DNA from: a virus
Virus genome (UHGV): UHGV-0151125
Length of the DNA stretch: 17,225 bases
Reading direction: 5' to 3' (one strand)
Below are positions 875 to 16,660 of this stretch, piece after piece (positions within the stretch are counted from its first letter, which is position 1; each line of letters starts with the position of its first letter). The notes beneath the pieces were generated by a model. It did not search any database. It was not told the origin of the DNA and saw only the letters and a program-made list of their open reading frames with translations. A program made the translations under genes and the position numbers.

Positions 875-876
875 CT

Positions 877-1151: not shown

Positions 1152-1160
1152 AGATTCTAT

Positions 1161-1190
1161 GAAAAGACCGGATTCCGGTCTTTTCTCTTT
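1161..1190. terminator. Rho-independent terminator (agaccgg-att-ccggtct + TTTCTCTTT). The upstream A-tract makes it potentially bidirectional.
   Basis: Perfect 7-bp GC-rich stem with a 3-nt loop and a T-rich tail, 10 nt after the stop of the 948-1151 ORF. Marks the AT-rich/GC-rich boundary. Confidence 0.7.
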
Positions 1191-1248
1191 CAACCCGCGT
1201 ATAATGGATATCGTCAAAGCAAGCCGACCGATCAAAGGAGATTACATT

Positions 1249-1512
1249 ATGGCTGCTATCACCCGCACTTTCAAGAGTTTCGAGCTGACCGCGTACGAAC
1301 TGGATGATTCAATCCCGCCCAGCGTGCGCGCTGTCGCCCAGTACGTCGTGCTGGACACCAACATGAACGCCCGCAAAGCCCGTATCGCCTTCCGCGATGC
1401 CGGCGTGGCGCTGCCCAAGGGCTGCACGATCAAGTGGGTCGAAGGCGAGGAGAAGACCTATTCCATGCCCGTGGAAACGTTCCTCGAAAACGCTACCGTC
1501 GTCGACGCTTAA
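1249..1512 (+). CDS. Small early protein, 87 aa; candidate p6-like dsDNA-binding protein by position and size (tentative)
   Basis: RBS aaaggag at 1234-1240. First gene of the GC-rich replication operon. The C-terminal segment EKTYSMPVETF resembles my recollection of phi29 p6, but that is recall, not a search. Confidence 0.5.
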   Translation: MAAITRTFKSFELTAYELDDSIPPSVRAVAQYVVLDTNMNARKARIAFRDAGVALPKGCTIKWVEGEEKTYSMPVETFLENATVVDA

Positions 1513-1537
1513 ACCATCTGACTAGAAGGAGAAAACC

Positions 1538-1999
1538 ATGCCCGAGAACAAAGACATCGCCATCGCCGAGGAAATGCCCGTCAACGACCTCGCACCTGCC
1601 CGCACGTACGCCATCGCCGAGCTTGCCAAGCCCGAGGACAACACGTTCTGCTCGGTGAACCCGGAGCTTGGAGCGGATGCCAAGAAGCTGATCTACAACG
1701 CGTCCAACAACCCGACGCACAAGATCGACGACTTCATCAACAAGCAGATCGCGCTGAAAGACCTGTTCGTGGAGATCATCGAAATCGCAGACGAGGACGG
1801 CACCGTGGAGCAAGCCCCGCGCATCGTCCTCATCGACGACAAGGGCGAGAGCTACCAGTGCGTTTCGAACGGCGTGTGGGGCTCGCTCAAGAAGATGTTC
1901 GCCGTCTACGGAGCGCCAACCTACGAGGAGCCTATCAACGTGGTCGTCAAGCAGGTGAAGGTTAAGCGCGGCACGATGCTCACACTCGAAGTCGCTTAA
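1538..1999 (+). CDS. Hypothetical early protein, 153 aa; candidate ssDNA-binding protein by synteny (phi29 gene 5 position)
   Basis: RBS aaggag at 1526-1531. Followed by a strong terminator. Function inferred only from gene order. Confidence 0.5.
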   Translation: MPENKDIAIAEEMPVNDLAPARTYAIAELAKPEDNTFCSVNPELGADAKKLIYNASNNPTHKIDDFINKQIALKDLFVEIIEIADEDGTVEQAPRIVLIDDKGESYQCVSNGVWGSLKKMFAVYGAPTYEEPINVVVKQVKVKRGTMLTLEVA

Positions 2000-2012
2000 A
2001 GTTCTCAATCAC

Positions 2013-2041
2013 AGGCCGCACCCAGCGTGCGGCCTTTTTTT
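2013..2041 (+). terminator. Rho-independent terminator (aggccgcac-ccagc-gtgcggcct + TTTTTTT)
   Basis: 9-bp perfect GC-rich stem, 5-nt loop, 7 T's, directly after the stop at 1999. Confidence 0.8.
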
Positions 2042-2052
2042 CAGGAGGAGCC

Positions 2053-2361
2053 ATGTTGTCGCTTGCAGACAAGGATTTGATGGAGCAGTTCGTAGCGGAC
2101 TCGTCGAACAGGGTGTTGAAAAAAGAGCTATGGGCGCATGCCGTCGTCCCGCAAGGCGTGGTCGTTTTCAACCGCCATCGTAACGGGCGCATCGAATATA
2201 TGTTCACCAAGGACGACAAGTTCGATATGAAGCGGGACGACATAAACGACCTGCGCGAGCTTGTGCGCCGCTACGTCATAGACGATTATATCGGACTCGT
2301 CTTCGTCATGCATTCGCAAGCGCTGAAAACGGTTTCCAAGCATATCAAATATCGTTATTGA
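2053..2361 (+). CDS. Hypothetical early protein, 102 aa (possible regulator by position, unproven)
   Basis: RBS caggaggag at 2042-2050, ATG at 2053. Confidence 0.55.
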   Translation: MLSLADKDLMEQFVADSSNRVLKKELWAHAVVPQGVVVFNRHRNGRIEYMFTKDDKFDMKRDDINDLRELVRRYVIDDYIGLVFVMHSQALKTVSKHIKYRY

Positions 2362-2374
2362 AAGGAGGTGCGCC

Positions 2375-2779
2375 ATGCCTTCGAAAAACGGCGTTTTCTA
2401 CGAGTTGAAGGAATCGCCTTACTCTTTCATGTACGGAGACTGTACGTTCTTCTTCTCGTCTAGGAGGCATCTTTACAGTTTCATGGACAAGATCTGCGTC
2501 AGAACGCAATGGCTGGACGACAGCATGGAAAAGCGTTTCCACTTCTACGTCAATATGCAGCTGGCCGCCGCGTTCCAACTGTATTTCACGGTGGAGACCA
2601 GGGGGTGCTACGTCAGATTGGAAAACGGTGAGGAGCTGACATGCAGAGAGAACCTAAGATTAAATGGACTGAAAGCCAGCGTTCGCGCCTCAACTCCGCA
2701 GTCCGAAAGTACAACAACGCCATTCGACGGGCTATGCGGGCGAATCCCGTCAACGCCCGGTTCATGCCCGAACCGGTAA
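2375..2779 (+). CDS. Hypothetical early protein. The N-terminal ~90 aa are convincing; the 3' end overlaps the terminal-protein gene by 139 nt, so the true stop is uncertain.
   Basis: RBS aaaggagg at 2361-2368. Aromatic/Cys-rich, protein-like N-terminus. The C-terminal extension may be chance read-through in GC-rich DNA or a frameshift artefact. Confidence 0.4.
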   Translation: MPSKNGVFYELKESPYSFMYGDCTFFFSSRRHLYSFMDKICVRTQWLDDSMEKRFHFYVNMQLAAAFQLYFTVETRGCYVRLENGEELTCRENLRLNGLKASVRASTPQSESTTTPFDGLCGRIPSTPGSCPNR

Positions 2780-3381
2780 GCTACAAGGATGTCAAAGCCG
2801 AGATCAAGAGCGCGCGCGTGCTTAACAACACGGTCGCGCGCTTGCTGCGCGCTACGCGCAAAGGAGCCTTGGACTTGACGACCGTCGGCGAGGGAGGCAT
2901 TGCCACGCGCTACGAAGTGCGGGAGTTCCAGATCGCGAAAGCCGTCAACGAGCGGCGCAAGTCGCTCAGGCGCAAGAAGCTGGGGATCGACTACGGCCAG
3001 ACCCTGGGACGCATGGGAACGTTGCAGCAGAACAACCTCCTTCCCGACAAGCGCACCGCGCGAGACTTCTCTCCCATCGCCCTCAAGCGCTTCATCAAGC
3101 GTTACGAGGAGCTGAGCGCTACGAGTTCCTATGAAAGGCTGAACAGGTACTACAAGAACTATATCAAAGGCCTCAACACGGTGTTCGGCGGCTACTCCGA
3201 GTTCGATGCGGCTATATCGCAGATCGCGAAGAAGATCGAATCCATGATGAAGTCCAACGCGGGCGACCTCATGGATTTCTTCGAGTCCGGAGACGAGCTT
3301 TTGAACATCGAGTACATTTACGCTCCTGAAGACCGCGCCGACAAGATGGGCTATATCCTCGACAGATGGGCTGAGCTATGA
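2641..3381 (+). CDS. Terminal protein (primer protein for protein-primed replication), 246 aa
   Basis: Basic 246-aa protein immediately upstream of the protein-primed DNAP. RBS ggtgaggag. The basic N-terminus and the segment GGYSEFDAAISQIAKKIES resemble phi29 p3 (GSFNSFDAADELIEELKK) as recalled. Size and synteny are typical. Confidence 0.7.
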   Translation: MQREPKIKWTESQRSRLNSAVRKYNNAIRRAMRANPVNARFMPEPVSYKDVKAEIKSARVLNNTVARLLRATRKGALDLTTVGEGGIATRYEVREFQIAKAVNERRKSLRRKKLGIDYGQTLGRMGTLQQNNLLPDKRTARDFSPIALKRFIKRYEELSATSSYERLNRYYKNYIKGLNTVFGGYSEFDAAISQIAKKIESMMKSNAGDLMDFFESGDELLNIEYIYAPEDRADKMGYILDRWAEL

Positions 3382-3382
3382 T

Positions 3383-5071
3383 ATGCAGTACTTCACGGCC
3401 GATTTCGAAACGACGGCAGACGACCTGACCCGGACGCGAGTTTGGGCGTGGGCTGCCTGCACCTTGAAAACCTACGATATAACGACCGGAACTTCCATCG
3501 AAGGGTTCGTGGAATGGTGCGAGCGCGCCCCGGACGCTCGCGTGTACTTCCACAACCTGAAATTCGACGGGAAGTTCATCATATCGCATCTGCTCGATGC
3601 GGGGTGGGAATGGATTCCCAGCCACGGAGAGCAAGCGCCCTACCGGTTCACGACGTTGATCAGCGACATGAACCAGTTCTACACCATCAAGCTCTGTTTC
3701 GGGCGCGGGCATTATATCGAATTCTGCGATTCGTTGAAGATCATCAGCTTGCCGGTCGCGAAGATTCCGAAGGCGTTCGGCTTCGAGGATGAGGACGCGA
3801 AGCTCGAGATAGACTACACGGGGCATCGCGATCCCGATCACGTTCTCACGCAGCAGGAGATAGACTACATATCGGCAGATGTCAGGATCGTGGCGCGCGC
3901 CTTGGGCGAGCTGATCGACCAGGGCGCGACCAGGATCACGGCGGGATCGAACGCCATCGCCGAGTACAAGAAGACGATAGGAGGCGAGAAGGGGTTCAGG
4001 CGCACCTTTCCGGTGTGCGACTACGACGCGGAGATCCGGCCATGCTACAAGGGAGGATTCACCTACGTCAACCCCGATTTCAAAGGGCGCGACATCGGGG
4101 AGGGTATCGTCCTGGACGTTAACAGCCTGTACCCTTCCGTCATGGCCGGTGTTGGAGGCGAGACCCTGCCGTACGGCGATCCGATGCTCTTCGAAGGGGA
4201 GTACGTCCCGGATCCTCGATACCCGCTCTACATACAGACCGTGACCGTCGACTTCAAGCTCAAGCCCGGCTTCATCCCGTGCTTGCAGCTCAAAGGCAAT
4301 TTGAGCTTCATGCCGACCGAATACGTAGTCGATTCCAAAGGAGAGCAGACGCTGGTGTTGACCAGCGTCGACTTGGCGCTTCTGCGCGACCACTACGATG
4401 TCTATTCCATCCGCTACGGCAAAGGCTGGAAGTTCAAGGCATCGAACAAGCTATTCTACGATTTCATCATGGCGGCCAACGAGGAGAAGGTGCATGCGGC
4501 CGAGGAGGGAAACGCCGGCAAGCGGTACATGGCGAAGCTCAAGATGAACTCCTCGTACGGGAAGATGGCGACGCATCCGGTCAAACGGAGCCGCCGGCCG
4601 GTCATGTGCGAGGACGGCATAGTGCGCTACCCTCTGCTCGAACCGGAAGAGACCGACGGCATGTACCTGCCGGCCGGGGCTTTCATCACGGCATGGGCGA
4701 GGAACAAGACGATACGGAGCGCGCAGAAGGTGAAGGATCGTTTCCTCTACGCCGACACCGATTCTCTTCATCTGGCCGGAACCGAGATCCCGGAAGAGCT
4801 TGACGTGGACGATTACAGATTGGGCGCGTGGAAGCTCGAAAGCACGTTTCAGCGCGCCAGGTTCCTGCGCCCGAAGACCTATATCGAGGACGAGGGCGGC
4901 AAGCTCACCGTGCATTGCGCGGGGTTGCCCGAATCGTGCCATCCTCACGTCACATGGGATAATTTCCATGTCGGCGCGAAATTTCCGGGAAAACTCTATT
5001 CCAAGACCGTAAAAGGCGGTATTATACTATGCGAAGGTGATTTTGTCATCAGAAAGGAGGCAGGCTTATGA
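3383..5071 (+). CDS. Family-B DNA polymerase, protein-primed type (phi29 p2-like), 562 aa
   Basis: Motifs seen in the translation: Exo I DFETT, Exo II YFHNLKFDGKF, motif A DVNSLYPSVM, motif B KMNSSYGKM, motif C YADTDS, KTY. Length is typical of protein-primed DNAPs. ATGA-type coupling to neighbouring genes. Confidence 0.92.
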   Translation: MQYFTADFETTADDLTRTRVWAWAACTLKTYDITTGTSIEGFVEWCERAPDARVYFHNLKFDGKFIISHLLDAGWEWIPSHGEQAPYRFTTLISDMNQFYTIKLCFGRGHYIEFCDSLKIISLPVAKIPKAFGFEDEDAKLEIDYTGHRDPDHVLTQQEIDYISADVRIVARALGELIDQGATRITAGSNAIAEYKKTIGGEKGFRRTFPVCDYDAEIRPCYKGGFTYVNPDFKGRDIGEGIVLDVNSLYPSVMAGVGGETLPYGDPMLFEGEYVPDPRYPLYIQTVTVDFKLKPGFIPCLQLKGNLSFMPTEYVVDSKGEQTLVLTSVDLALLRDHYDVYSIRYGKGWKFKASNKLFYDFIMAANEEKVHAAEEGNAGKRYMAKLKMNSSYGKMATHPVKRSRRPVMCEDGIVRYPLLEPEETDGMYLPAGAFITAWARNKTIRSAQKVKDRFLYADTDSLHLAGTEIPEELDVDDYRLGAWKLESTFQRARFLRPKTYIEDEGGKLTVHCAGLPESCHPHVTWDNFHVGAKFPGKLYSKTVKGGIILCEGDFVIRKEAGL

Positions 5072-5424
5072 GCAGGTACCAATCGGGCTTGCGCGAGCTG
5101 GCGATGGAGCCGGACGAGGACAAGCGTCTCGAGATGGCCGCCGCTATCGACGAGGACGCGGCCGAGCTGGACGACCGCTGGGACGAGCGCGAGGGCTGGC
5201 GAAACGAGCGAGAGGAGTGGGACGTGGAGCGCGACCGCCTGAACGCGGAGCGCGACGAGGCCATCGCCGAGCGCGACCGCTACCGCGAGGAGCGCGACGA
5301 GTCGCGCCGCAGGTACGCCGACCGGTTCTTCGCCGTCGAAGGCCAGACGCTGCTCCATGCGAACGAGGTAGGCGAGGAAGTTCGGCGCGAGCCGATCCGC
5401 TCAGCCGACGAGATCTGGGATTAA
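5068..5424 (+). CDS. Acidic coiled-coil protein, 118 aa; scaffolding-protein candidate (phi29 gp7 position)
   Basis: RBS aaaggagg at 5053-5060. ATGA overlap with the DNAP stop. Highly charged E/R/D-rich helical sequence immediately upstream of the major capsid gene. Confidence 0.55.
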   Translation: MSRYQSGLRELAMEPDEDKRLEMAAAIDEDAAELDDRWDEREGWRNEREEWDVERDRLNAERDEAIAERDRYREERDESRRRYADRFFAVEGQTLLHANEVGEEVRREPIRSADEIWD

Positions 5425-5433
5425 GGAGAGATT

Positions 5434-6915
5434 ATGGCAGTTAAGCAACCTAACATGAAAGCCGCCGATTCGCCGATCGTCATGAAGGCCGGCGATACGG
5501 CAGCGCGCGAGACGGCTGCGCAGAAGGCGGTCGAAGCGACCATCAACGAGACTCCGGAGGTAGCGTCCGCGCTCGCGGCTCGCGGGATCCCGGCGACTTA
5601 CGACTCGAACAACCGCGCCTACGTGGAGCTTGCGGGAACCACCGACGAGCTCCACGTCATCGGCGAGTACCTGACCAGCTACCAGCCCGCGCGAAACGCG
5701 TTTCTGAACGCGCTCGTGAACCGCATCGGCCTCACCATCGTGACCTCCAAGCTGTACCGCAACCCCTGGGCGGTGTTCAAGCGCGGGTACCTCGAGTTCG
5801 GAGACACGATCGAGGAAATCTTCGTCAACCTCGCCGACGTTCACGGCTTCTACCCCGAGGGCGCGGAGGACACGTTCGCCAAGCGCGAGCTTCCCGACGT
5901 GCGCACCGCGTTCCACCGTATGAACTTCCAGAAGTTCTACAAGACGACCGTCTCCTCCCAGCAGCTGCGCCAGGCGACCCTGTCCTGGACGGCCGTTAGC
6001 GACCTGATCGCGCGCATCATCGAGTCTCTCTACACCAGCGCCAACACGGACGAGTACTACGTCATGCGCTATTTCCTGGCCAAGTGCCTCCTCAACGGCT
6101 ATATCGGATCGGTGGAGATTCCCGCGATCGGCAAGGACAACGCCGTCGACATCGCCACGCAGTTCCAGTACATGTCCGACCTGTTCCAGTACCAGTCCAC
6201 GAAGTACAACATGGCGGGCGTGACCACGCACACGGACTTCGAAGACCAGTACTTCATCGTCACGGCCAAGTTCAAGGCCACGATGAACATGAACGTGCTG
6301 GCCACCGCGTTTAATCTGGAGTACCGCGAGTTCCAGGCGCGCATGATCACGGTCGACACGTTCACCGACTTCGACTGGGTTCGCATGGACGCGCTGTTCA
6401 CCGACCCGGCCACCGGCAAGCTCGATCCGAACTACCACCGCTTCACGCAAGAGGAGATCGCGCTGCTCGAGAGCGTGCCGGCGGTGCTGGTGTCGCGCGA
6501 TTGGTGGATGGTGCTGGACAACTACGTGGAGTCCGCGCAGTGGTTCAACGGCGAAGGGGTGTACTGGAACCATTGGCACCATGTGTGGAAGACCATCAGC
6601 TGCTCGCCGTTCGGGCAGGCGGCCGCCTTCACCCCGACCGCCCCGACCATCACGAGCGTGACGGTCACCCCCGCGACCGCCACGCTTTCCAAGGGAGCCG
6701 ACCTGCAGCTGTCTGCCGCGGTCGTCGGAACCGGCATCGTGAACCATGGCGTGCAGTGGACGGTGACCGGAGGCGCGGCATCCGGCACGACCGTCACCAA
6801 CGGCGGGTACCTGCATGTGGCGGCCAACGAGACGGCGACGACGCTCACCGTCACGGCAACCTCCATCCAGGACGGAACGAAGACGGGCGAATCCACCATC
6901 ACCGTCACCGCATAG
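5434..6915 (+). CDS. Major capsid protein (phi29 gp8-like) with a C-terminal Ig-like (BIG2-type) domain, 493 aa
   Basis: RBS aaggagag. Multiple segments match phi29 gp8 as recalled (LVNRIGLTIV, GDTIEEIF, RDWWMVLDNY, GVYWNHWHHVWKTIS). The C-terminal T/V-rich repeat region is typical of BIG2. Confidence 0.85.
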   Translation: MAVKQPNMKAADSPIVMKAGDTAARETAAQKAVEATINETPEVASALAARGIPATYDSNNRAYVELAGTTDELHVIGEYLTSYQPARNAFLNALVNRIGLTIVTSKLYRNPWAVFKRGYLEFGDTIEEIFVNLADVHGFYPEGAEDTFAKRELPDVRTAFHRMNFQKFYKTTVSSQQLRQATLSWTAVSDLIARIIESLYTSANTDEYYVMRYFLAKCLLNGYIGSVEIPAIGKDNAVDIATQFQYMSDLFQYQSTKYNMAGVTTHTDFEDQYFIVTAKFKATMNMNVLATAFNLEYREFQARMITVDTFTDFDWVRMDALFTDPATGKLDPNYHRFTQEEIALLESVPAVLVSRDWWMVLDNYVESAQWFNGEGVYWNHWHHVWKTISCSPFGQAAAFTPTAPTITSVTVTPATATLSKGADLQLSAAVVGTGIVNHGVQWTVTGGAASGTTVTNGGYLHVAANETATTLTVTATSIQDGTKTGESTITVTA

Positions 6916-6928
6916 CCTATGTTCTGCC

Positions 6929-6960
6929 GAGGGCGGGATTCGTTTCCCGCCCTCCTTTCC
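6929..6960 (+). terminator. Hairpin gagggcggga-ttcgtt-tcccgccctc followed by a short CTTTCC tract; candidate partial terminator/attenuator after the capsid gene
   Basis: Perfect 10-bp GC stem 14 nt after the MCP stop. The U-tract is short, so likely leaky. Confidence 0.45.
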
Positions 6961-6974
6961 GAAGGAGGTGAGAA

Positions 6975-8600
6975 ATGTACCAGCCCAGCACGGAGATTCG
7001 GATAGGGACGGTTCCGTGGAACCCGAACTACAAGCACGTTCGCTGGTATCCGAACCTGAACGCCCAGTTGTCGGGCGTAGCTTCGTTCATGGACGCTCGG
7101 CGAACGATTTCAACCTACACGTACCAGCGCCTGGAATCTGCCATCGACGTGGACGGCAACCCCGAGCAGTACTACAATTACAACTACGTGATGTTCCAGA
7201 ACGAGAACTTCGGGACTAAGTGGTTCTACGCGTTCATCGCCCGCGCAGAGTACAAGACGGCCAACACGACGCGCTTGCACTTGGAACTCGATTACGTGCA
7301 GACCTACATGTTCGACTACGATATCAAACCGTGCTTCGTGGAGCGCGAGCATGTGAACGACGACGCGATAGGCGCTCACGTCAAGGACGAGGGGATCGAT
7401 CCGGGCGAACTCAAATGCACGTACTCGGCGATCGACAACGAGGACATGGATTGCTACATGGTCGTGGCGAGCGCCGTGGAGCCTTTGAAGGACGGAACGT
7501 ACGTCAACAACGGCGGGGACAAGTACATGGGCGTTACCAGCGGCACGAGCTTGTCGGTGTTTCTGACGGTGGACGACTTCAAGGGATTCATGAAAGCGCT
7601 GTCCGACAACGGCCAGCAGGACGCGGTGAGCCAGGTCTACATGGTTCCTCGAGCGGCGATCCCGACTATCGTCAAGAAGTCCGACGGCTGGGGCTACTGG
7701 GTCGATTCGAACGCGGCGACCCCGCAGGTTACGAAGAACTACGCCCTGGGCTTCACCAACCTGGACGGTTACGTGCCGAAGAACAACAAGATGTTCTGCT
7801 ACCCGTTCGAATACGCCGAAGTGACCAATTTCACCGGAGCCGACCAGCAGTTCCGGCTCGAATTCTGCGGAACGCCCGGAACGCTGAGCTTGCAGAAGAC
7901 GGGCGGCTGCGATGCGAACTCGCGTCTGGCCTACATACCGCTGAACTACAACGGGGTGAACCGCTTCGTCGAAGGCGCGGTGTACTTGGAGAAGTACCCC
8001 ACTTGCAACTGGGTGTACCAGGCGTTCGCCAACATGCTCGGCGCGTCCCAGGTGGACACGTCGTTCGGCTTGTCGTTCAACTCGATGAGCCAGCTGCCCT
8101 ACGTGAACTCCTTCATCGACTCCACGCAGAACATCATCGGAGGAGCCATGCAGGGCTTGGCATCCGGCACCGTCGCCGGGGCTGCCGCGAGCATGATCAA
8201 CTCGACGATCAACGGCGCGCAAGACCTGACCAACACCTTCGCGAACTTCTCGAAGGCATCGAAGACCCCGAACACGCAGCGCGGAGGCACTAACTCGACT
8301 ACCGCGCTCGTGAACTTCGGAACCTACACGATAGGCGTTCGCAAGTACACGTGCCGAGCCGAGATAGCGCGCCAGATCGACGACTTTTTGAGCGTGTACG
8401 GCTACAACGTTTCCGTCGTGAAAACGCCCAACATCACGGGGCGCGCTTCGTGGAACTACGTGAAGACCGTAGCCGCGAACATGACCGGATCGGTTCCGGC
8501 CGGATACCTGGCGATGTTCAACAGGCTGCTCGATTCCGGAGTCACGTTCTGGCACACGGACGACGTGGGCAACTATTCTCTACCGAACAACATAATCTAA
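6975..8600 (+). CDS. Tail knob / distal tail tube protein (phi29 gp9-like), 541 aa
   Basis: RBS gaaggagg. N-terminal YVMFQNENFGTKWFYAFI...REHV and C-terminal TFWHTDDVGNYS match phi29 gp9 (YIMFQNADYGNKWFYAFV...REHV, TLWHTDNIGNYS) as recalled. Synteny. Confidence 0.75.
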   Translation: MYQPSTEIRIGTVPWNPNYKHVRWYPNLNAQLSGVASFMDARRTISTYTYQRLESAIDVDGNPEQYYNYNYVMFQNENFGTKWFYAFIARAEYKTANTTRLHLELDYVQTYMFDYDIKPCFVEREHVNDDAIGAHVKDEGIDPGELKCTYSAIDNEDMDCYMVVASAVEPLKDGTYVNNGGDKYMGVTSGTSLSVFLTVDDFKGFMKALSDNGQQDAVSQVYMVPRAAIPTIVKKSDGWGYWVDSNAATPQVTKNYALGFTNLDGYVPKNNKMFCYPFEYAEVTNFTGADQQFRLEFCGTPGTLSLQKTGGCDANSRLAYIPLNYNGVNRFVEGAVYLEKYPTCNWVYQAFANMLGASQVDTSFGLSFNSMSQLPYVNSFIDSTQNIIGGAMQGLASGTVAGAAASMINSTINGAQDLTNTFANFSKASKTPNTQRGGTNSTTALVNFGTYTIGVRKYTCRAEIARQIDDFLSVYGYNVSVVKTPNITGRASWNYVKTVAANMTGSVPAGYLAMFNRLLDSGVTFWHTDDVGNYSLPNNII

Positions 8601-8610
8601 GGAGGTGCAT

Positions 8611-9603: not shown

Positions 9604-10274
9604 GCAAGTATACGGTGCAGCTTCGATGGGTGCTCGAACAGACGCTTGCCGATGCGAAGCTGCCGAACATCGAGGCCAACTGGCATGCTGCTTACGACAA
9701 GCTGGGCTTGGCCGACTATCCGATCTTCGACGAAGCGTATAGGCAGACGCTGAACGACAAGATCATACGCCACTATTTCATGTACGAGATAGGAGCTGAA
9801 ACGGCGGGGTTGTTCCGCATGTTCGTTCGCGACGCGATGTTCTTGATCATGCCGTACTATAATCAGCTGTACCTGTCGGAGATAACTGCGAAGGGCATCC
9901 ATCCGCTCATCGACCACACGCGGACTATCGCGGAAGACGCGACCGGCACCGCCTCGAATGCCGCGAACACCAGCGCGACTTCGACGAGCAACGCGCAGGA
10001 CATTTTCAGCGACACGCCTATGAGCGCGCTCAATTTCGACAATATCAAGGCGGGCAACTACGCGTCAACCGCCGACTTTACCGATGCGTCCACGACCGAT
10101 TCCGGCAAATCGGATTCGAGCGGCAGCTACGACAACAAGCTGTCGCGCACGGAGACCGGGCATGACAAGGCGGAATCCGAACTGCTCTTGATTTGGCGAG
10201 ACACGTTCGTTAATATAGACCGTGACGTAGTGGAAGACAAAGCGCTGCGCGAATGCTTCATGACGATATGGTAA
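9600..10274 (+). CDS. Lower collar protein candidate (phi29 gp11 position), 224 aa
   Basis: ATGA overlap with the portal stop. Assignment by synteny only. Confidence 0.5.
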   Translation: MSKYTVQLRWVLEQTLADAKLPNIEANWHAAYDKLGLADYPIFDEAYRQTLNDKIIRHYFMYEIGAETAGLFRMFVRDAMFLIMPYYNQLYLSEITAKGIHPLIDHTRTIAEDATGTASNAANTSATSTSNAQDIFSDTPMSALNFDNIKAGNYASTADFTDASTTDSGKSDSSGSYDNKLSRTETGHDKAESELLLIWRDTFVNIDRDVVEDKALRECFMTIW

Positions 10275-10284
10275 GGAGGAGCGC

Positions 10285-10743
10285 ATGAACCAGCCCACAC
10301 CGGACGTAGCGCCGTTTCGCTACTACGTGCAAATGGTTCTGCCGGCCGTCTACGGCGACGAGCTGAGCTATTACGAGGTGCTTGCGAAAGTGACCGAGAA
10401 GCTGAACGAGGTCATCGAGAATTTGAACAAACAGGGTCAGAACGTGAACGACCTCATGGCGTTCTACAATCAGCTGAAAGCGCAGGTGGACGCGCTGGAA
10501 AACGAGGTGGACGCGATCAAGAACGGCGAGTACGTGCATCTGTACCTCGATTCCATCATAAACTGGATCGACGCGAACCTGCAGTGCCTGGTGGCAAGGA
10601 TCGTGAAGTTCGTATGCTTCGGGCTTGGCGACGACGGGCATTTCAAGGCGTACATCCCCGCTACCTGGCAGTTCCTGCAGTTCGACACGGGCATGAACCC
10701 CGACGACTCGGAAACGTACGGGCACCTCATCATCAAATGGTAA
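10285..10743 (+). CDS. Hypothetical coiled-coil protein, 152 aa, between the collar and tailspike genes
   Basis: RBS aaggagga. Predicted heptad-rich segment (LNEVIENLNKQGQNVNDLMAFYNQLKAQVDALENEVDAIK). Confidence 0.6.
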   Translation: MNQPTPDVAPFRYYVQMVLPAVYGDELSYYEVLAKVTEKLNEVIENLNKQGQNVNDLMAFYNQLKAQVDALENEVDAIKNGEYVHLYLDSIINWIDANLQCLVARIVKFVCFGLGDDGHFKAYIPATWQFLQFDTGMNPDDSETYGHLIIKW

Positions 10744-10754
10744 AGGAGAGAATC

Positions 10755-12869
10755 ATGGCAGAATCCACGAAGAACATGACGGTGGGCGCGGGAAGCGCGA
10801 GCGCGAGCGTCACCGCCACCGTGACCGATCAAATGCCCGGCGTTCCGTGCCCCGCGACTCCGGGTTATACATATACCGGCATGCGCTACGTGCCCGTGTT
10901 CGCCGACCCTGCGGAGTGGTCTAGCGCGAACAGCTACGAGCCATTGGAAATTGTCATCCACGAAGGTAATTCGTACACTTCCAAGACGTTCGTGCCGGTT
11001 GGTGTCGAGATCACCAATAAGGAGTACTGGGCTAATACCGGTAATTACAATGCGCAGATCGAACAGTATCGGCAGGAAGTATTGGCAATGCAGGGGCAGG
11101 TGACGCAGAACAAGAACAATATCGCGGGCTTGAAGCAGCAAGTCTCGGCAGTGCAGGGGCAGGTGACGCAGAACAAGAACGATATCGCGGACGAGATCGC
11201 CGCACGCAAGAAGGTGTACGTCACCTACGCGGACTTCGGGGCCAAGCTCGACGGCGTGACGGACGACAGCGCCGCTATCATCGCCGCGCACAAATACGCG
11301 AACGCTAACGGCGTTCCCGTCGTGCAGCACGGCGGTAAGGTGAAGTGCAATTTCCAGGCCGAAGTCAAGACCTCGTGCCTGCTAGATATGGAGTTCGTGC
11401 TGCTGGCGGACTCGCCTCAGCCCGTGTACTCGATCGAGGCCGACGACGCGCAGGACTTCACGTTCTCGGGGAGCGTCACGGCCGATTCCGTCACCAGCCC
11501 CGATGCCAGGCTGAACGGCTGCTTCGCGGTGATACAGAACGAGAACACCGGTTGGAACCTGGGGGCTCGAGAAGGGAAGGGGGCGGCGGTCTACCATCGG
11601 GAAGTCAAGGCGTACGACAAAGCGGGAATGCTCATCACATCGCCGTTCTACATCCCGAACACCGGAACGTTCACGTGCTCTAACGTTCATTCCCTTTGGG
11701 AACGGCCAGTGGAGTTCGCCGGGGCTACCATCACGTACGACAATTCGGAGCAGGCCAACATTCCGAATTTCCTGCGCGTGCGTAGAAACAACACTACAGT
11801 CAAGGATATCACGTTCAATCCGCTGTCCGTTCCGCCTGCGAATGCTGCTTCTCTTACAAGCAACGGGTTGATTTTCGTCACCGCTTGCGCAAACGTTAAA
11901 GTAAGCAATATCTCGGCAAATAACAACTCGTCAGACAACGAAACCGCTACCGCATCTTACTACAGCTATATCATCGGGTTCAACAGCACGTTCAACTGCC
12001 ATGTTGACAACATGCTCGGAGTAGGAGGCTGGGGTGTTGTCGGGAACGACTGGTGCGACTGCATGACTTACTCTAACTGCGTGTTGAACAGAGTTGACAA
12101 CCATTACGGAGCATTCGGAACTTACAATCTAACAAATAGCAAACTGACTGGAGTCTGCGCGTTCACGCTACCGTACGGAAACGCGAACGCCGTTATAAGC
12201 AACGTTGATATGTTCCCGCGTGCTAACAAATTCTCTTGCATCGACTTTAGAACAGACGTGAAGCTAACATTTCAAGGGACTTTGTATATAAACAACTGCA
12301 CATTAAACGAGCCAAATTCTAATCGAGCAAACATCTTTATAAAAGCTGTTAAAAGCGTTTCTTCTGGTTCACAACCAGACGTAAAGCCAAGAATCGTAAT
12401 AAACGGCCTGTATTACAACACAACTCGCCAATTCTGTTATTCGCCGGAAGGTATGGCGCTCAATTACTCTATTAACGGGTTCGAAGGCAACTTCAGCATG
12501 TGGGGAGACCCGAACGTCAAAATGTCAAATTCCATATGCTGGAACATGGACACGAACGGATTATTGACACCTAACACGATCATCCACATCGATAACTGCA
12601 CACTCAACAAAAAAGAAACGCTCCCTAGCACAGACTGGTTTTTCACTGGCGAATTTATAATCGCGAATTGTAAAATCAACAATACTTTCAAATGCAACAC
12701 TCAAGACGATCAAGCTAAGCACCTAGTAACCGGATGCATTTTCAAAAACGGCGAGACCGTTAGCGGAAAGGGTGCGGTCAGCTTCGTCGGATGCGTGATC
12801 GACACGGTTCCAACATTGGCGCATTACAAATCGAAAAGCTGTTTCGGCATTGCGGATGCTGAAAAATAG
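10755..12869 (+). CDS. Tailspike / pre-neck appendage-like protein (phi29 gp12 position) with a right-handed beta-helix-like region, 704 aa
   Basis: RBS aaaggagag, ATG 10755. The ORF track's earlier start at 10584 lacks an RBS and overlaps the upstream gene. Asn/Gly/Cys-rich repetitive beta-helix-like sequence, an internal 21-aa tandem repeat, and synteny. Confidence 0.65.
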   Translation: MAESTKNMTVGAGSASASVTATVTDQMPGVPCPATPGYTYTGMRYVPVFADPAEWSSANSYEPLEIVIHEGNSYTSKTFVPVGVEITNKEYWANTGNYNAQIEQYRQEVLAMQGQVTQNKNNIAGLKQQVSAVQGQVTQNKNDIADEIAARKKVYVTYADFGAKLDGVTDDSAAIIAAHKYANANGVPVVQHGGKVKCNFQAEVKTSCLLDMEFVLLADSPQPVYSIEADDAQDFTFSGSVTADSVTSPDARLNGCFAVIQNENTGWNLGAREGKGAAVYHREVKAYDKAGMLITSPFYIPNTGTFTCSNVHSLWERPVEFAGATITYDNSEQANIPNFLRVRRNNTTVKDITFNPLSVPPANAASLTSNGLIFVTACANVKVSNISANNNSSDNETATASYYSYIIGFNSTFNCHVDNMLGVGGWGVVGNDWCDCMTYSNCVLNRVDNHYGAFGTYNLTNSKLTGVCAFTLPYGNANAVISNVDMFPRANKFSCIDFRTDVKLTFQGTLYINNCTLNEPNSNRANIFIKAVKSVSSGSQPDVKPRIVINGLYYNTTRQFCYSPEGMALNYSINGFEGNFSMWGDPNVKMSNSICWNMDTNGLLTPNTIIHIDNCTLNKKETLPSTDWFFTGEFIIANCKINNTFKCNTQDDQAKHLVTGCIFKNGETVSGKGAVSFVGCVIDTVPTLAHYKSKSCFGIADAEK
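11091..11190 (+). repeat. Two copies of a 37-nt direct repeat (period 63 nt) encoding QGQVTQNKN(N/D)IA in the tailspike
   Basis: 11091-11127 and 11154-11190 are identical at 36 of 37 nt. Confidence 0.8.
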
Positions 12870-12957
12870 GATGAGGTGGTGCTTCGATGGATTTCATCAT
12901 AACCGAGCAGACAATCACGCTTTCATTAGACAATTCGTTTTGGATCGGAAACGCATA

Positions 12958-13323
12958 ATGCCTAACGATCCTACAGGCGGTGGAAACCCCAACTTCTTCA
13001 AGACCTTCAAGGGGGCGTACGTCCACGCCCCCTCCCCCGAAGCGATGTTCACCAGCGAGCGGGTCATGCTGTCCTGCGTGAACGACGTGCAGTTCCAAGG
13101 CGATTGCATGATCATGAACTACACGCCGGGCGCGACGCTCACGACGCTGCCTCCGGAATGCCGGCCGTCGACCGAAGTGCGGATTCCCGTGGTAGTAGAT
13201 ACTAACGTGGACGTGCTTTCGATTCAGACGAACGGCGCGGTTTCCTTGCATGCTTCTACCGACGGCATGGTGTATCTGGCGGGACTGTCCTTCAATATAA
13301 GCATGAACTGGTATTCTAATTAG
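12958..13323 (+). CDS. Hypothetical protein, 121 aa (beta-rich; possible virion protein)
   Basis: GC-rich ORF. Start chosen at ATG 12958, because the upstream in-frame extension to TTG 12850 has atypical W/C/H-rich composition and overlaps the tailspike end. Weak RBS. Confidence 0.5.
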   Translation: MPNDPTGGGNPNFFKTFKGAYVHAPSPEAMFTSERVMLSCVNDVQFQGDCMIMNYTPGATLTTLPPECRPSTEVRIPVVVDTNVDVLSIQTNGAVSLHASTDGMVYLAGLSFNISMNWYSN

Positions 13324-13334
13324 GAGGAATCAAG

Positions 13335-13514
13335 ATGGATGTTAACGATATTGTCACTCTTATCGGTAGTCTGGGCTTCCCTATTGTGGCTTGCGTGGGC
13401 ATGTTTTACCTGTACAATCGTACTCTTAAGGATTTTACTAGCACACTTAACGACATTGCGAGCGAGATTAAGGAGATACACGAAGAGCTTAAAGAGCTGA
13501 TCAAGAATGCTTAG
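13335..13514 (+). CDS. Small single-TM holin-like protein, 59 aa
   Basis: Strong RBS taggagga. One hydrophobic helix (LIGSLGFPIVACVGMFYLY) plus a charged C-terminus. Overlaps the endolysin start by 8 nt. AT-rich island. Confidence 0.55.
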   Translation: MDVNDIVTLIGSLGFPIVACVGMFYLYNRTLKDFTSTLNDIASEIKEIHEELKELIKNA

Positions 13515-14181
13515 GGGCATCGACATATCGAACTGGCAAGCTGGGTTGGACGCGGATAGCGTGTTCCCGAACGTGGACTTCGTGATCTGCAAGGCGACCG
13601 AGGGCGTGGATTTCGTGGACGGATACTGCGACAGCTGGGTGCAATGGTGCCGCAGAAACGGCAAGCCCTGGGGCTTCTACCATTTCGCGAATTCCAACGA
13701 TCCCATGAAAGAGGCTATCCATTTCATAGACAACACGAGCAACTATTTCGGCGAAGGTATTCCGGTGCTTGACTGGGAGGGCGGCCAAAGCGTTGAGTGG
13801 GTCAACGAGTTCGTGAACATCGTCCACGATCAGACCGGAATCTGGCCGTGGATCTACGCCAACCCCTGGCGATTCAACCAGGGCGGCGTGGAGCAGAACT
13901 GCATGCGCTGGATCGCGAGCTACCCCGACGTGCTGCGCCCGGGACTCGACTACGACCCCGGCGAGCCTCCGGAGACGGACGGCCTCGTCGGCTGCTGGCA
14001 GTACGCGTCCGACGGGCAGGTGCCCGGATACGCGGGCAACCTGGACGTGAATCACTTCTTCGGAAGCGTCGGCGCGTGGCAAGCGTACGCGGGCGTCCCA
14101 TCTTCGGGACAACCTGACCCGTCGCCTTCGCAGTCGGTTTTGGAAAACGATAGATTCCGCGTGACAATCGAAGAGAAGTAA
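13507..14181 (+). CDS. Endolysin, GH25 family muramidase (lysozyme), 224 aa, no obvious cell-wall-binding domain
   Basis: N-terminal RGIDISNWQ, DFVICKATEG, GFYHFA and LDWEG signatures of Glyco_hydro_25. Confidence 0.8.
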   Translation: MLRGIDISNWQAGLDADSVFPNVDFVICKATEGVDFVDGYCDSWVQWCRRNGKPWGFYHFANSNDPMKEAIHFIDNTSNYFGEGIPVLDWEGGQSVEWVNEFVNIVHDQTGIWPWIYANPWRFNQGGVEQNCMRWIASYPDVLRPGLDYDPGEPPETDGLVGCWQYASDGQVPGYAGNLDVNHFFGSVGAWQAYAGVPSSGQPDPSPSQSVLENDRFRVTIEEK

Positions 14182-14310
14182 TGTATGATGGTCATGCGCC
14201 GGAAAGCAAGCTATCTTCTGCGTCTGTGGGGCACCCGGTGAAACGGGCACGGGCGCATACGGAGAACAGCCCCCTCTGTGATAGTCTTTTCGGTTAGCGC
14301 CCTTTGACTT

Positions 14311-14347
14311 GCCGCCCTCCGCTTGCACAGCATGATGGAGGGCGGCG
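14311..14347 (+). other. Strong hairpin (gccgccctcc - 17-nt loop - ggagggcggc) within a 200-nt GC-rich non-coding region
   Basis: 10-bp perfect stem. No U-tract follows, so it is not a canonical terminator. Additional stems at 14194-14200/14252-14258 and 14234-14247. Confidence 0.5.
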
Positions 14348-14389
14348 CTCTAAAAGTCGAGGGAAATTCTCAAGTCAAAGGAGGAAATC

Positions 14390-14461
14390 ATGAAAATCAA
14401 AGAGCTTTTGAAATACGCCGAAGAAGGAATAACGGTGTACTTCGGCTCGACATTGAAATGA
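14390..14461 (+). CDS. 23-aa mini-ORF (MKIKELLKYAEEGITVYFGSTLK) with a strong RBS
   Basis: aaaggagg at 14377-14384, 5 nt from the ATG. Its TGA stop overlaps the ATG of the next ORF (ATGA). Alternatively the 5' part of a frameshifted single gene. Confidence 0.3.
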   Translation: MKIKELLKYAEEGITVYFGSTLK

Positions 14462-14586
14462 ACTATTGCTTCGATAAGAACAGCTCTCTTAGCGAAGCAG
14501 ATATGGAAGTGCTGAACATGGAACCGTCGAAAATCTGGGGATGGGACGATGGAACTATCTGCGTTGAAGTGAAGATAAATGGCTAA
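14458..14586 (+). CDS. 42-aa ORF (MNYCFDKNSSLSEADMEVLNMEPSKIWGWDDGTICVEVKING) coupled to the upstream mini-ORF and overlapping the ATPase start by 8 nt
   Basis: The stop-start overlap architecture on both sides suggests translation. No RBS of its own. Confidence 0.35.
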   Translation: MNYCFDKNSSLSEADMEVLNMEPSKIWGWDDGTICVEVKING

Positions 14587-15589
14587 GTACTGGGACATAT
14601 CGAAGACTCTCTCCTACAACTGCCTGTTCAACTTCATTTACGGCATCCGCGGTGCGGGCAAGACCTACACGGGGCTGCAGCACTATGTGAAACGGTACCT
14701 GCGCACGGGCAAGCGCTTCATGTATTTGCGCCGCACGGAAGAGGAGTTGAAGAACCTGGCCACCCGCAAGGATGGTCGCCTCTTCAACCATGTGCAAGTC
14801 GAGTTCCCGGGACACGCGCTCTGGGCTGAATCCAACATCCTGCATATCGACAAGGAGATATGCGGCTACGCGCAAGCGCTGTCAACGGCGCGCAAGCTCA
14901 AGTCCGATGCGCTGGACAACGTGGACACGATCCTGTTCGACGAGTTCGTCATCGACAAGGGTTTCCAAACGTACCTTCCCGACGAGGTGACGGCGTTCTT
15001 GGAGCTTTACGAAACCATCGCGCGACCCGGTTCGCGTGATTACGACGTAACCTGCATGTTCTGGGGAAACGCGGTGACCTCGGCGAACCCCTACATGGAC
15101 TACTTCAAGTTGGAGCTTCCCTACAAGACGGACGTATGGAGGCGCGGCGAGTTCCTGACGCAGATGGTAGCGCCTCCCGAGCTGATCGAAGCGAAGAAGG
15201 GCACGCGCTTCTACCAGGCGATAGCGGGCAGCGACTATGCGGCGTACGCGGCCGAGAACAAATGGTTGCGCGACAATCCGAAGTTCATCGCGAGAAAAGG
15301 CAAGAATGCCGAATACCAGTTCACGCTCCTTTACTACGACGATGCTATCGGCATATGGCGCGACAACCGAAACGGATGCTATTACGTATCGGAAGACGTT
15401 GACCGCCAATGCCGCCACGTGTTCGCCGCCACGACGGAAGACCATGAGCCGAACACTCTGCTGCTCAAAGGTTTCAAATCCTCGCCCCATCTGGCTAACT
15501 TGAAGAAGGCTTACGACATGGGGTGCGTGCGGTACGAGTCCATGAAGCTCAACAACTGGTTCAGGGATATTGTTAGGATGGGATTATGA
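14579..15589 (+). CDS. DNA encapsidation (packaging) ATPase, phi29 gp16-like, 336 aa
   Basis: Walker A GIRGAGKT, Walker B ILFDEF. Extended similarity to phi29 gp16 (LSYDRILNFVIGARGIGKSY; VFDEFI...NAVSVVNPYF) as recalled. Confidence 0.88.
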   Translation: MAKYWDISKTLSYNCLFNFIYGIRGAGKTYTGLQHYVKRYLRTGKRFMYLRRTEEELKNLATRKDGRLFNHVQVEFPGHALWAESNILHIDKEICGYAQALSTARKLKSDALDNVDTILFDEFVIDKGFQTYLPDEVTAFLELYETIARPGSRDYDVTCMFWGNAVTSANPYMDYFKLELPYKTDVWRRGEFLTQMVAPPELIEAKKGTRFYQAIAGSDYAAYAAENKWLRDNPKFIARKGKNAEYQFTLLYYDDAIGIWRDNRNGCYYVSEDVDRQCRHVFAATTEDHEPNTLLLKGFKSSPHLANLKKAYDMGCVRYESMKLNNWFRDIVRMGL

Positions 15590-15834
15590 TCATCACTACT
15601 AAAAATGGCGATATGGTAGATACAGTGCAGATTATCGAAGAAAACGTATATACCATAGATGATGTTAAATACGCGGTGGAAACTGACATGTATATTGCTG
15701 CAACGGTTCAGATACGAATTTGCGATACTGGAAAGAAACAGCTGGAAGTTTCCGACCCGGAAATTGGCAAAGAAGCGCAGTACCATCTACGACAGTTCAT
15801 CAAGTACATGAAACAGTTGGGGAGGTATTACTGA
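15586..15834 (+). CDS. Hypothetical protein, 82 aa (AT-rich island)
   Basis: ATGA overlap with the ATPase stop. Its stop overlaps the next start (TGATG). Confidence 0.5.
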   Translation: MIITTKNGDMVDTVQIIEENVYTIDDVKYAVETDMYIAATVQIRICDTGKKQLEVSDPEIGKEAQYHLRQFIKYMKQLGRYY

Positions 15835-16535
15835 TGGCTGAGCCGGTTATAATCAGCGCTACCAAGCAAGGCGGCGTTGAGAACGCTTACGTAGGAACCA
15901 TCGGAAACGACGGCTATATATACTTCAACGATGTTGACTTCTACCGCTTCAAGAACGAGGGCACGTGGGAGAACAACGTATACGTGCTTAACCGCACTCG
16001 CCACTCATGGACGAAGACGACCATGTTCACCAAGATCAGCGCGCAGAATCTCAATTCAGGCTCTGGAAGCGTCGCACCCGGCGGATCAGGCGTTGAGGGC
16101 GCGTGTCTGTGGGCTGTCGGGATCGCCGACGACAACAGCCACGGCTACGACCAGCCGACGCGGGACGGCGGCGTGGACTTCGACTGCTCGAGCCTTGTGT
16201 CCTGGGCGTTCCGCGAGAACGGATGGGACGTTCCGTTCCCCTCCCCCTCCACCTACAACATGTCCAGCGTGTTCACGGGGCTTGGCTTCAAGAGGTACAA
16301 CGGCAACCCGGCAGCGTCGGATTTGGTGCGCGGGGACATCGTTCTGTTCGAGGGCGACATATCGGCGGGCACCGGGCACGTGGAGCTGTATCTCGGAGAC
16401 GGTATACTCGTGGGCGCGCATATCAACGAGTTCGGGGGCGTGGCCGGAGGGCAGCCGGGAGACCAGACCGGGAACGAGATATCGACCGGCGGGTATTACA
16501 GGAGCTGGAACTGTTGGCTGAGATGGGAGGGTTAG
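15834..16535 (+). CDS. NlpC/P60-family (CHAP-like) cysteine peptidase with an N-terminal ~100-aa extra domain, 233 aa; candidate virion-associated or second lytic peptidoglycan hydrolase
   Basis: RBS ggagg at 15821-15825. FDCSSLVSWAF (catalytic Cys context), GDIVLF...GHVELYLGDG...GAHIN (His region) are typical of NlpC/P60. The ORF track's start at 15720 extends into the upstream gene. Confidence 0.7.
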   Translation: MAEPVIISATKQGGVENAYVGTIGNDGYIYFNDVDFYRFKNEGTWENNVYVLNRTRHSWTKTTMFTKISAQNLNSGSGSVAPGGSGVEGACLWAVGIADDNSHGYDQPTRDGGVDFDCSSLVSWAFRENGWDVPFPSPSTYNMSSVFTGLGFKRYNGNPAASDLVRGDIVLFEGDISAGTGHVELYLGDGILVGAHINEFGGVAGGQPGDQTGNEISTGGYYRSWNCWLRWEG

Positions 16536-16610
16536 GGTGTTGTCGCATTATATTGCACTTGTAGTGGGCACTATGTTAGGTATCGCTATTATGTGTCTGG
16601 TGAGCGGTAA

Positions 16611-16631
16611 TAAATGAACGTTGTTCATTAA
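16611..16631. promoter_or_regulatory. Third copy of the operator-like inverted repeat TAAATGAAC-gtt-GTTCATTAA, overlapping the -35 region of the right-arm promoter
   Basis: Same arm sequence and 3-nt spacer as the ITR copies. Confidence 0.5.
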
Positions 16632-16660
16632 ATCTAATTATCACTTGCTTGTTGTATAAT
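16632..16660 (+). promoter_or_regulatory. Right-arm promoter with consensus TATAAT (16655-16660), TG just upstream, poor -35
   Basis: TATAAT sits 43 nt upstream of ATG 16703, with an RBS in between. Confidence 0.45.

Follow-up and report, generated by a model that had tools for sequence, protein, structure and literature searches.

The window analysed here is the whole of virus genome UHGV-0151125, a stretch of 17,225 nucleotides (nt), in which a core rich in G and C (GC) is flanked by arms, and interrupted by islands, rich in A and T (AT). The original prediction, made from the sequence alone, had described this mosaic and suggested that its AT-rich pieces were recently acquired as modules by a high-GC lineage, with phages or hosts of low GC as the source, or the reverse. 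The window comprises a complete linear genome, that of a small phi29-like podophage. Over 84% of its length it aligns to the Eggerthella phage LE1-1 (MW679025, Guelinviridae), whose host is Eggerthella lenta DSM 2243, at 94.6% nucleotide identity, and the two agree in gene order and GC mosaic. Differences from LE1-1 consist of a beta-helix depolymerase spike module where LE1-1 has an SGNH/GDSL esterase, two additional arm genes (orf107 and orf72), a tail lysin of reduced length and a frameshift in a 67-codon gene.

Credible genes are all located on the plus strand. Pfam families were found for SSB, a gp4-like late activator, a type-B DNA polymerase of the protein-primed kind (PF03175, 1e-52), a phi29-type capsid protein (PF25622, 3.5e-85), a connector (PF05352, 1e-43) and a tail knob (PF20934, 2e-24) and, for packaging and lysis, a gp16 packaging ATPase (PF05894, 8.5e-63), a GH25 lysozyme and an NlpC/P60 tail lysin. 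The open reading frame (ORF) upstream of the polymerase, where a terminal protein gene was searched for, matched no Pfam family, and a divergent version could be missed. A small linear double-stranded DNA genome with inverted terminal repeats (ITRs) and the phi29 gene set are shared with phi29-like phages; to our knowledge, phi29 differs from the window in that its genes do not all lie on one strand.

GC content in 300-nt windows spans 0.37-0.71. Its standard deviation is 0.069, whereas 1000 shuffled sequences averaged 0.028 and never exceeded 0.036; the partition, far beyond chance, is established. Likelihood-ratio segmentation of GC divides the sequence into the domains listed below, in almost exact agreement with the boundaries claimed previously (~1190/1200, 11760-12869 and 16540).

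1-1250, no strand: segment of 42.6% GC
1251-11725, plus strand: GC-rich core, 58.5% GC, with GC at third codon positions (GC3) of 0.68-0.90, common to 93-100% of close relatives; contains SSB, gp4-like activator, type-B polymerase, major capsid, tail knob, connector, lower collar, minor tail protein and proximal spike
11726-12975, plus strand: distal AT-rich part of the spike module, 45.2% GC, GC3 down to 0.33
12976-16546, no strand: segment of 55.4% GC, with a dip to 45.1% at 15542-16058
16547-17225, no strand: segment of 42.0% GC

The small islands noted at the holin, the mini-ORF region (14401-14600) and the 82-residue ORF were found as well (GC 0.42, 0.43 and 0.41), and the difference between core and islands was present in both sliding-window GC and GC3. 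Shallower GC dips are present at 2250-2550 and 4951-5100. GC3 of core genes reaches 0.90 in capsid, 0.86-0.87 in SSB and 0.85 in tail genes, and is 0.36-0.55 in the island genes (orf52, orf72, distal spike, holin, decayed small gene, orf82 and orf90). Since the contrast is present at synonymous sites, amino-acid composition alone is insufficient as its cause.

Sharing of AT-rich DNA among relatives and the spectrum of new variants

Relatives were obtained through an IMG/VR capsid-protein search, which yielded 79 loci, 32 of them close (capsid identity 84-99%) and 47 distant (27-32%). The close loci and LE1-1 make up a set of 33 genomes that was mapped onto the window, and this is the set to which counts of close relatives refer. 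Nucleotide diversity is given separately for third codon positions (pi3) and for first and second positions (pi12). Genes of the AT-rich compartments and their neighbours are as follows.

256-579, plus strand: orf107, accessory, GC 0.52, in 4/33 close relatives, between 30-nt direct repeats at 219-248 and 680-709
716-874, plus strand: orf52, in 27/33, GC 0.38, GC3 0.51-0.52, pi12/pi3 0.27
933-1151, plus strand: orf72, accessory and variable, in 6/33 and not in LE1-1, GC 0.36, GC3 0.36
13335-13514, plus strand: holin (PHROG holin family, 3.6e-10), in 29/33, GC 0.42, GC3 0.51-0.52, pi12/pi3 0.28
14182-14578, plus strand: AT-rich gap between lysozyme and packaging genes, with a hairpin and a decayed 67-codon accessory gene, the latter in 9/33
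15586-15834, plus strand: orf82, accessory, in 18 of the 28 relatives covering the locus, GC 0.41, GC3 0.47-0.48, pi12/pi3 0.15
15804-16535, plus strand: tail lysin (NlpC/P60), a short allele in which ~500 nt of the LE1-1 version are absent
16703-16975, plus strand: orf90, hydrophobic N-terminus, in 24/33

No Pfam or PHROG matches were obtained for orf107, orf52, orf72, orf82, orf90 or the decayed gene. Early takeover, the role that the original prediction gave to the arm genes, is a putative label, the arm ORFs having no recognisable homologues.

Nearly the whole stretch 1201-10200 is common to 93-100% of close relatives. Corresponding values are 15% for 249-677 (the orf107 region), 39-52% for 901-1200 (the orf72 region), 19% for 11101-12900 (the spike module), 30% for 14401-14550, 60% for 15601-15750 (orf82) and 56% for 16801-16950. 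Over 100-nt bins of the window, GC rises with sharing among the 33 genomes (Spearman rho 0.38, p = 2e-7). When 26 near-complete genomes were pooled, bins present in at least 90% of them had 57.6% GC and bins present in less than 70% had 43-49%, so that variable DNA lies ~10 GC points under core DNA; it is likewise GC-poorer in three independent clades of distant relatives. Related phages that were fetched have 37-59% GC, mostly lower than the core of this clade. Faster point-mutation drift as a source of AT-richness was rejected, as islands, where shared, are ~0.92-0.97 identical to relatives, the same as the core.

The claim that the AT-rich pieces are the modular ones holds as a tendency: GC tracks sharing and flexible DNA is GC-poor, but holin, orf52 and orf90 are AT-rich and mostly conserved. 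The decayed gene, the spike module and both orf72 and orf107 are patchily distributed among close relatives; the arms as such, holin, orf52 and orf90 are not. Presence or absence between adjacent genes, in the manner of morons, characterizes orf82, the decayed gene, orf72 and orf107 (18/28, 9/33, 6/33 and 4/33), at GC 0.36-0.45 except for orf107 with 0.52.

Holin, orf52, orf90 and orf82 are under purifying selection (pi12/pi3 0.15-0.28), with pi3 of 0.06-0.18, like core genes. Judged by these sequence comparisons, they are real resident genes that diverged together with the core. Recent acquisition, as proposed for them, does not agree with their presence in 29/33, 27/33, 24/33 and 18/28 genomes, respectively, and with their core-like synonymous diversity. 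Conservation extends to the arms, which have 40-49% GC in all close relatives (43-49% in the left arm), next to cores of 54-58%. Arms of distant relatives are AT-rich too, to a weaker degree.

To characterize the direction of ongoing change, singleton variants among close genomes were polarised by the majority allele, and the equilibrium GC that they imply was computed with a 95% confidence interval (in brackets).

Core third positions: present GC 0.85, implied equilibrium 0.57 (0.53-0.61)
Island-gene third positions: present GC 0.52, implied equilibrium 0.30 (0.18-0.42)
Distal spike: present GC 0.45, implied equilibrium 0.43 (0.32-0.56)
Arms: present GC 0.40, implied equilibrium 0.26 (0.15-0.36)

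Singletons are AT-biased in every compartment, and an excess of AT-to-GC changes was found in none of the islands among the close genomes. Islands stand at or moderately above the GC implied by their variants, and the core is held further above. The difference in spectra between core and islands, itself an observed feature, indicates separate substitution regimes, with no compartment converging upward. In the amelioration model of Lawrence and Ochman, transferred DNA reportedly starts with an atypical base composition. Atypical composition and a patchy distribution of some islands fit this model, whereas the directional AT-to-GC substitution it predicts is absent from the window, and no donors were identified. 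Imports still in the course of amelioration are therefore not supported, equilibrium GC being at or below present GC in every island.

The tailspike module

The receptor-binding gene lies across the boundary between the core and the largest internal island, and is organized as follows.

10755-12869, plus strand: tailspike gene, an anchor followed by an exchangeable module
10755-11087, plus strand: N-terminal anchor, residues 1-111, in 26/33 close relatives
11088-12869, plus strand: exchangeable module, residues 112-704, with coiled-coil linker, right-handed beta-helix depolymerase and C-terminal domain, in 6/33

Modular exchange at this gene was correctly anticipated, because the module and the anchor differ in this way in their distribution and unrelated modules occupy the same site in other genomes. 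Alternatives behind the anchor include an SGNH/GDSL esterase (LE1-1), a pectate-lyase-like beta-helix and an endosialidase-type N-terminal extension, with GC3 of 0.25-0.75. Thousands of spike proteins from metagenomes contain this anchor region as well. A query with the spike of the close relative L014 returned 3,522 proteins; among the 120 matches listed, most align over the N-terminal 19-30% only, enzymatic domains are varied, and many reside on 15-18-kb contigs.

Cassette behaviour is established also from diversity. In the seven genomes with the window-type module, pi3 of the spike module is 0.044-0.055, and that of adjacent genes 0.17-0.28, i.e. 4-6 times higher, while pi12/pi3 of the module is 0.7-1.0. 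Low synonymous diversity together with a high pi12/pi3 shows that the module spread recently between diverged backbones and that its protein evolves fast. Its genealogy is discordant with that of the flanks, as expected from recombinational spread.

An alignment-based AlphaFold model of the module is a right-handed beta-helix with a predicted local distance difference test score (pLDDT) of 82.9 and a predicted template modelling score (pTM) of 0.85; it superseded a single-sequence model with pLDDT 38. The best Foldseek match is 8x8m, the Klebsiella K64 tailspike (E = 9e-15), followed by LKA1 gp49 and phi29 gp12, so that Klebsiella and Pseudomonas tailspikes and phi29 gp12 are the closest to the window spike in fold. 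Only marginal matches were returned by a PDB sequence search with the spike. By its modelled fold, the module is predicted to be a capsule-depolymerase tailspike. Modular tailspikes of capsule-targeting podophages (Klebsiella, E. coli K1-type and P22/HK620) have a conserved N-terminal anchor and an exchangeable depolymerase. The window clade is alike in its anchor of ~110-150 residues and in unrelated enzyme modules placed at the same site, and differs in that the host is a Gram-positive gut actinobacterium and that GC3 falls steadily along the window module.

This fall is gradual: GC3 is ~0.9 at residues 120-260, 0.7-0.8 at 260-360, 0.5-0.7 at 360-500 and 0.33 at 500-560. GC at first and second codon positions (GC1 and GC2) declines as well, both in the small genes and in the distal spike. 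Composition changes at about 11726-11850, within the module and midway through the beta-helix, and the recombination junction is elsewhere, at 11087/11088. The implication for host range that had been drawn would be reasonable, given an exchanged module with a predicted depolymerase fold; the position of the composition break away from the junction does not favour recent acquisition of the AT-rich part.

The coiled-coil linker contains a tandem duplication of 63 nt (11072-11190, with 56-nt copies that are 91% identical), which spans the junction of anchor and module and may be a recombination hotspot. In three other phi29-like contigs, the spike is the GC-poorest large gene: GC3 is 0.46 in L081 (10001-12043), with neighbours of 0.64-0.83, and 0.51 in L153 (10001-12061), with neighbours of 0.64-0.77. 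The spike of L154 (205-2016) has GC3 of 0.41 next to genes of 0.53-0.76, a value shared with one small ORF. Spikes seem to be AT-rich generally among phages of this group.

Possible origins of the mosaic

Searches for homologues of the islands in donor taxa revealed no low-GC donor or bacterial source for any island of the window; for the small ORFs other than the holin and orf90 they covered family libraries and fetched loci. Nearest relatives of the spike module outside the clade are 35-42% identical and belong to phi29-like contigs of 53% GC, in which the spike is again the GC-poorest large gene. The tblastn searches of GenBank phages gave no match for the distal spike, and LE1-1 as the sole match for orf90. 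A spike-module profile run against 185,579 bacterial and archaeal genomes detected only beta-helix proteins of 22-27% identity (Clostridia, PVC group and others) and none in Eggerthellaceae, and on this basis a bacterial host origin of the module was rejected. The only homologues of the holin outside the clade are weak and occur in phi29-like phages of 37-40% GC, which fits an old family gene and an old import alike.

Import of low-GC DNA is documented elsewhere in the clade. A 2.8-kb block of 29-47% GC occupies 9750-12550 of L014, and is found also in L022, within an otherwise ordinary backbone of 57% GC. Its genes are diverged homologues of those in the window, namely an orf121-like gene (44% identity, GC3 0.32), the holin (57%, GC3 0.29), the anchor of the spike (61%) and the N-terminal part of the lysozyme; its gene order is unlike that of the window, and its spike has GC3 of 0.27. 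This indicates that a low-GC sister lineage exists and recombines with the present one. The block is the best support for the import idea, but it is in other genomes, and there it is protein divergence, not GC alone, that demonstrates a foreign origin. The proposed import of low-GC modules thus stands insofar as low-GC versions of recognition and lysis genes enter this backbone, and falls short insofar as they do so in genomes other than the window. Most AT-rich pieces of the window itself are not recent, nor could a foreign origin be demonstrated for them.

The explanation that we hold to be rather likely is that the mosaic reflects an old and lasting partition within the genome of a phi29-like Eggerthella phage and was not assembled from recent imports. 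E. lenta has a high-GC genome (PMC8778435). The vertically inherited replication, capsid and tail genes of the core would be kept at high GC3 by selection for the codon usage of such a host, most strongly in the genes expected to be the most abundant, in the order capsid (0.90), SSB (0.86-0.87) and tail (0.85). The arms, short accessory and membrane-protein genes and the distal spike would escape this pressure and remain nearer to the GC implied by their variants, if the pressure acts weakly or inefficiently on short accessory genes, on non-coding arms and on a spike tip that evolves fast. On top of the partition, recombination would move the spike module and small cassettes between backbones, and DNA imported in this way would on average be GC-poorer, most related phages being lower in GC than the clade core. 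Codon selection in the core is suggested because singleton regimes differ and GC3 ranks with expected expression; we infer that it holds the core high, and that weak selection together with a lower-GC import pool keeps the islands low.

Several observations weigh against this explanation. The evidence for host-like codon selection is the GC3 ranking, from which such selection is deduced. Dinucleotide difference (delta*) from the core is 102 for the pooled islands, compared with 56 +/- 18 for core chunks of equal length, and would fit a foreign origin too; taken singly, the right arm is significant, and the distal spike and small islands are not. The left arm is not uniform, orf107 with GC 0.52 and GC3 0.62 being variable yet relatively GC-rich. 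Majority-allele polarisation was applied to recombining metagenomic contigs, where imported sequence or errors in sequencing could bias the spectrum. Finally, wholesale low-GC import does occur in the clade (L014/L022), and an older event of this kind is possible for the window holin or distal spike.

An account in which a high-GC lineage recently took up every island from phages or hosts of low GC, with no amelioration so far, draws on the low GC of variable DNA, the cassette nature of the spike module, the L014/L022 block with its homologous recognition and lysis genes, the low-GC homologues of the holin, and the pooled dinucleotide signature, moderately unlike that of the core. We consider it unlikely, given that arms, holin, orf52 and orf90 are present in most close relatives with core-like synonymous diversity, that weaker AT-rich arms occur in distant relatives and singletons lack an AT-to-GC excess, and that no donor was found for distal spike, orf90 or holin and the spike GC break is not at the junction. 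The opposite course of events, an ancestrally low-GC lineage in which only the strongly selected core rose after a move to a high-GC host, the islands being relics, is consistent with the placement of LE1-1 in Guelinviridae, other listed members of which infect Clostridium and Amedibacillus (PMC11476376). The existence of phi29-like genomes of 37-40% GC, the ranking of GC3 with expected expression, and a core GC3 far above the equilibrium implied by its own variants point the same way. It is nevertheless improbable: the nearest outgroup clades already have 45-59% GC and present data do not polarise the direction of change, most island genes are without homologues in distant relatives through which ancestry could be demonstrated, and variable cassettes turn over.

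There is a small chance that the low-GC sister lineage behind the L014/L022 block regularly trades adsorption and lysis modules with the Eggerthella lineage, and that the small AT-rich ORFs (orf52, orf72, orf82 and the 67-codon gene) are mobile anti-defence genes, for which the low-GC anti-CRISPR regions of Pseudomonas Mu-like phages would be an analogue. If so, near-identical virions could switch between hosts that differ widely in GC and perhaps belong to different phyla. The view that the contrast simply follows from amino-acid content (small proteins and a spike tip that are hydrophobic or rich in Asn, Lys and Ile) or from non-coding sequence, and has no evolutionary meaning, accommodates the drop of GC1 and GC2 in the distal spike and small genes, and arms that are only about 55-60% coding, but this is very unlikely and largely refuted by a GC3 gap of 0.3-0.5 between core and island genes and by the difference in third-position singleton spectra. 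A chimeric assembly, with AT-rich pieces mis-joined to a GC-rich backbone, is hardly credible; adapter remnants at both ends indicate an untrimmed short-read assembly, yet the spike module recurs in unchanged context in six independent contigs, and most relatives share the arms, holin and orf82.

Comparable patterns have been described in other phages. The plastic genome regions of Pseudomonas Mu-like phages, which have 64% GC overall, lie in GC valleys that reach as low as 46% (PMC4378225). Variable regions are GC valleys in the window clade as well, where the contrast is 58% versus 36-45%. Similar to morons, single genes are inserted between genes that are adjacent in relatives, although orf82 overlaps both of its neighbours and is without its own promoter or terminator. 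Unlike in moron-type valleys, holin, orf52 and orf90 are AT-rich but not variable, and the singleton spectrum argues against equating low GC with recent arrival. The window is in this respect a further example of well-known phage mosaicism and tailspike modularity, unsurprising to the specialist. Few phages are known for Eggerthella lenta, a gut bacterium of medical relevance. The partition provides an engineering map, with the replication and virion core as fixed parts and the depolymerase tailspike behind its conserved anchor and small cassettes as interchangeable ones, which could be used in practice for re-targeting Eggerthella phages. For genome scans it advises caution, since low GC in a high-GC phage marks regulatory, weakly selected and exchangeable DNA and is no date stamp for recent transfer.

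Terminal arms, genome ends and accessory loci

Features of the arms and ends, in addition to the genes listed above, are:

1-30, mirrored at 17196-17225, no strand: adapter remnant, CGTGGGCTCGGAGATGTGTATAAGAGTCAG at both ends, not phage DNA
31-210, no strand: left ITR, ~40% GC, with an outward promoter (from 125 to 97), palindrome ATGAACATCGTTCAT at 161-175 and an inward early promoter at 191-219
31-1250, plus strand: left arm, 42.6% GC, with orf107, orf52, a 24-codon ORF (878-952) and orf72
16538-16618, plus strand: 26-codon hydrophobic ORF of the right arm, seen in the sequence
16547-17195, plus strand: right arm, 42% GC, including the right ITR (17016-17195)
About 16640-16660, plus strand: promoter-like TATAAT of the right arm, seen in the sequence

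AT-richness of the arms in all close relatives and the location of promoters, palindromes and a terminator within them identify the arms as a standing feature, both architectural and regulatory, of the lineage, in which single genes (orf107 and orf72) come and go. Their recent acquisition, as originally suggested, is at odds with AT-rich arms in every close relative and, more weakly, in relatives at 27-32% capsid identity. The left arm is predicted to be an early transcription unit, which starts with the early promoter (191-219) and is closed by a terminator hairpin (1161-1190). This hairpin, at the boundary of the arm, has a folding free energy (dG) of -16.8 and a z-score of -3.3.

Each ITR contains a perfect sigma-70 consensus, TTGACA-17-TATAAT, facing outward (97-125 on the minus strand and 17101-17129 on the plus strand). 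Both hexamers are invariant across relatives and the spacer is variable, which suggests a function for this promoter. A product resembling packaging RNA (pRNA) was considered for it and found unsupported, the predicted 62-nt transcript having no stable fold. Furthermore, a whole-window Rfam scan (E<=1) detected no pRNA family, in difference from phi29-like systems; the sole match was a weak, unrelated, sub-threshold small RNA, and a divergent pRNA could escape such a scan.

The palindrome ATGAAC-N3-GTTCAT is present at 161-175, 16614-16628 and 17051-17065, three copies compared with 0.06 expected by chance. Every copy is placed directly upstream of an arm promoter, and the same positions are occupied in 28 close relatives and in none of the other loci fetched; the palindrome looks like a candidate operator. 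Another short repeat, the 13-nt leader CAAGTYAAAGGAG, is found at 236-248, 697-709 and 14371-14383 (three matches, 0.04 expected), where one copy stands ahead of the start codon in each of orf107, orf52 and the decayed 67-codon gene. Recombination between the two 30-nt copies that include the first two leaders (219-248 and 680-709) could account for gain and loss of orf107.

The termini of the window form a perfect inverted repeat of 210 nt, the outermost 30 nt on each side included. We take CGTGGGCTCGGAGATGTGTATAAGAGTCAG, at both termini, to be the Tn5/Nextera (mosaic end) read-2 adapter with one mismatch. In five relatives, alignment to the window begins at 31 and stops at 17195. As the terminal 30 nt match the adapter and relatives align from 31, the phage genome corresponds to 31-17195 (17,165 bp), with perfect ITRs of 180 bp. 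The alignment of L030 also runs across the adapter bases, indicating that at least one IMG/VR contig carries the same contamination.

In the gap between lysozyme and packaging genes, relatives fall into two main length classes, about 273-278 nt and 463-499 nt. Compared with LE1-1, L002, L012 and L015, the 67-codon gene of the window has a 7-nt deletion that leaves a 23-codon mini-ORF (14390-14461) and an out-of-frame rest up to 14586; the frameshift is either a pseudogene or an assembly error. A scan for promoters and hairpins disclosed only an upstream hairpin and a weak promoter-like site. The hairpin, at 14311-14346 between the lysozyme gene and the decayed gene, has dG of -30.5 kcal/mol and z of -5.5, with no clear U-tract.

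Downstream, orf82 overlaps the stop codon of the packaging ATPase gene and the start of the tail lysin gene, and the promoter scan showed no adjoining plus-strand promoter or terminator. In the lysin ORF of the window, the start of a 38-codon ORF of LE1-1 is fused in frame to lysin residues 158-390. The lysin locus at 14154-15442 of L001 was compared with 15804-16535 of the window. Among relatives, the interval between orf82 and the lysin occurs mainly as variants of 399, 625 and 956 nt, which are combined in various ways with orf82.

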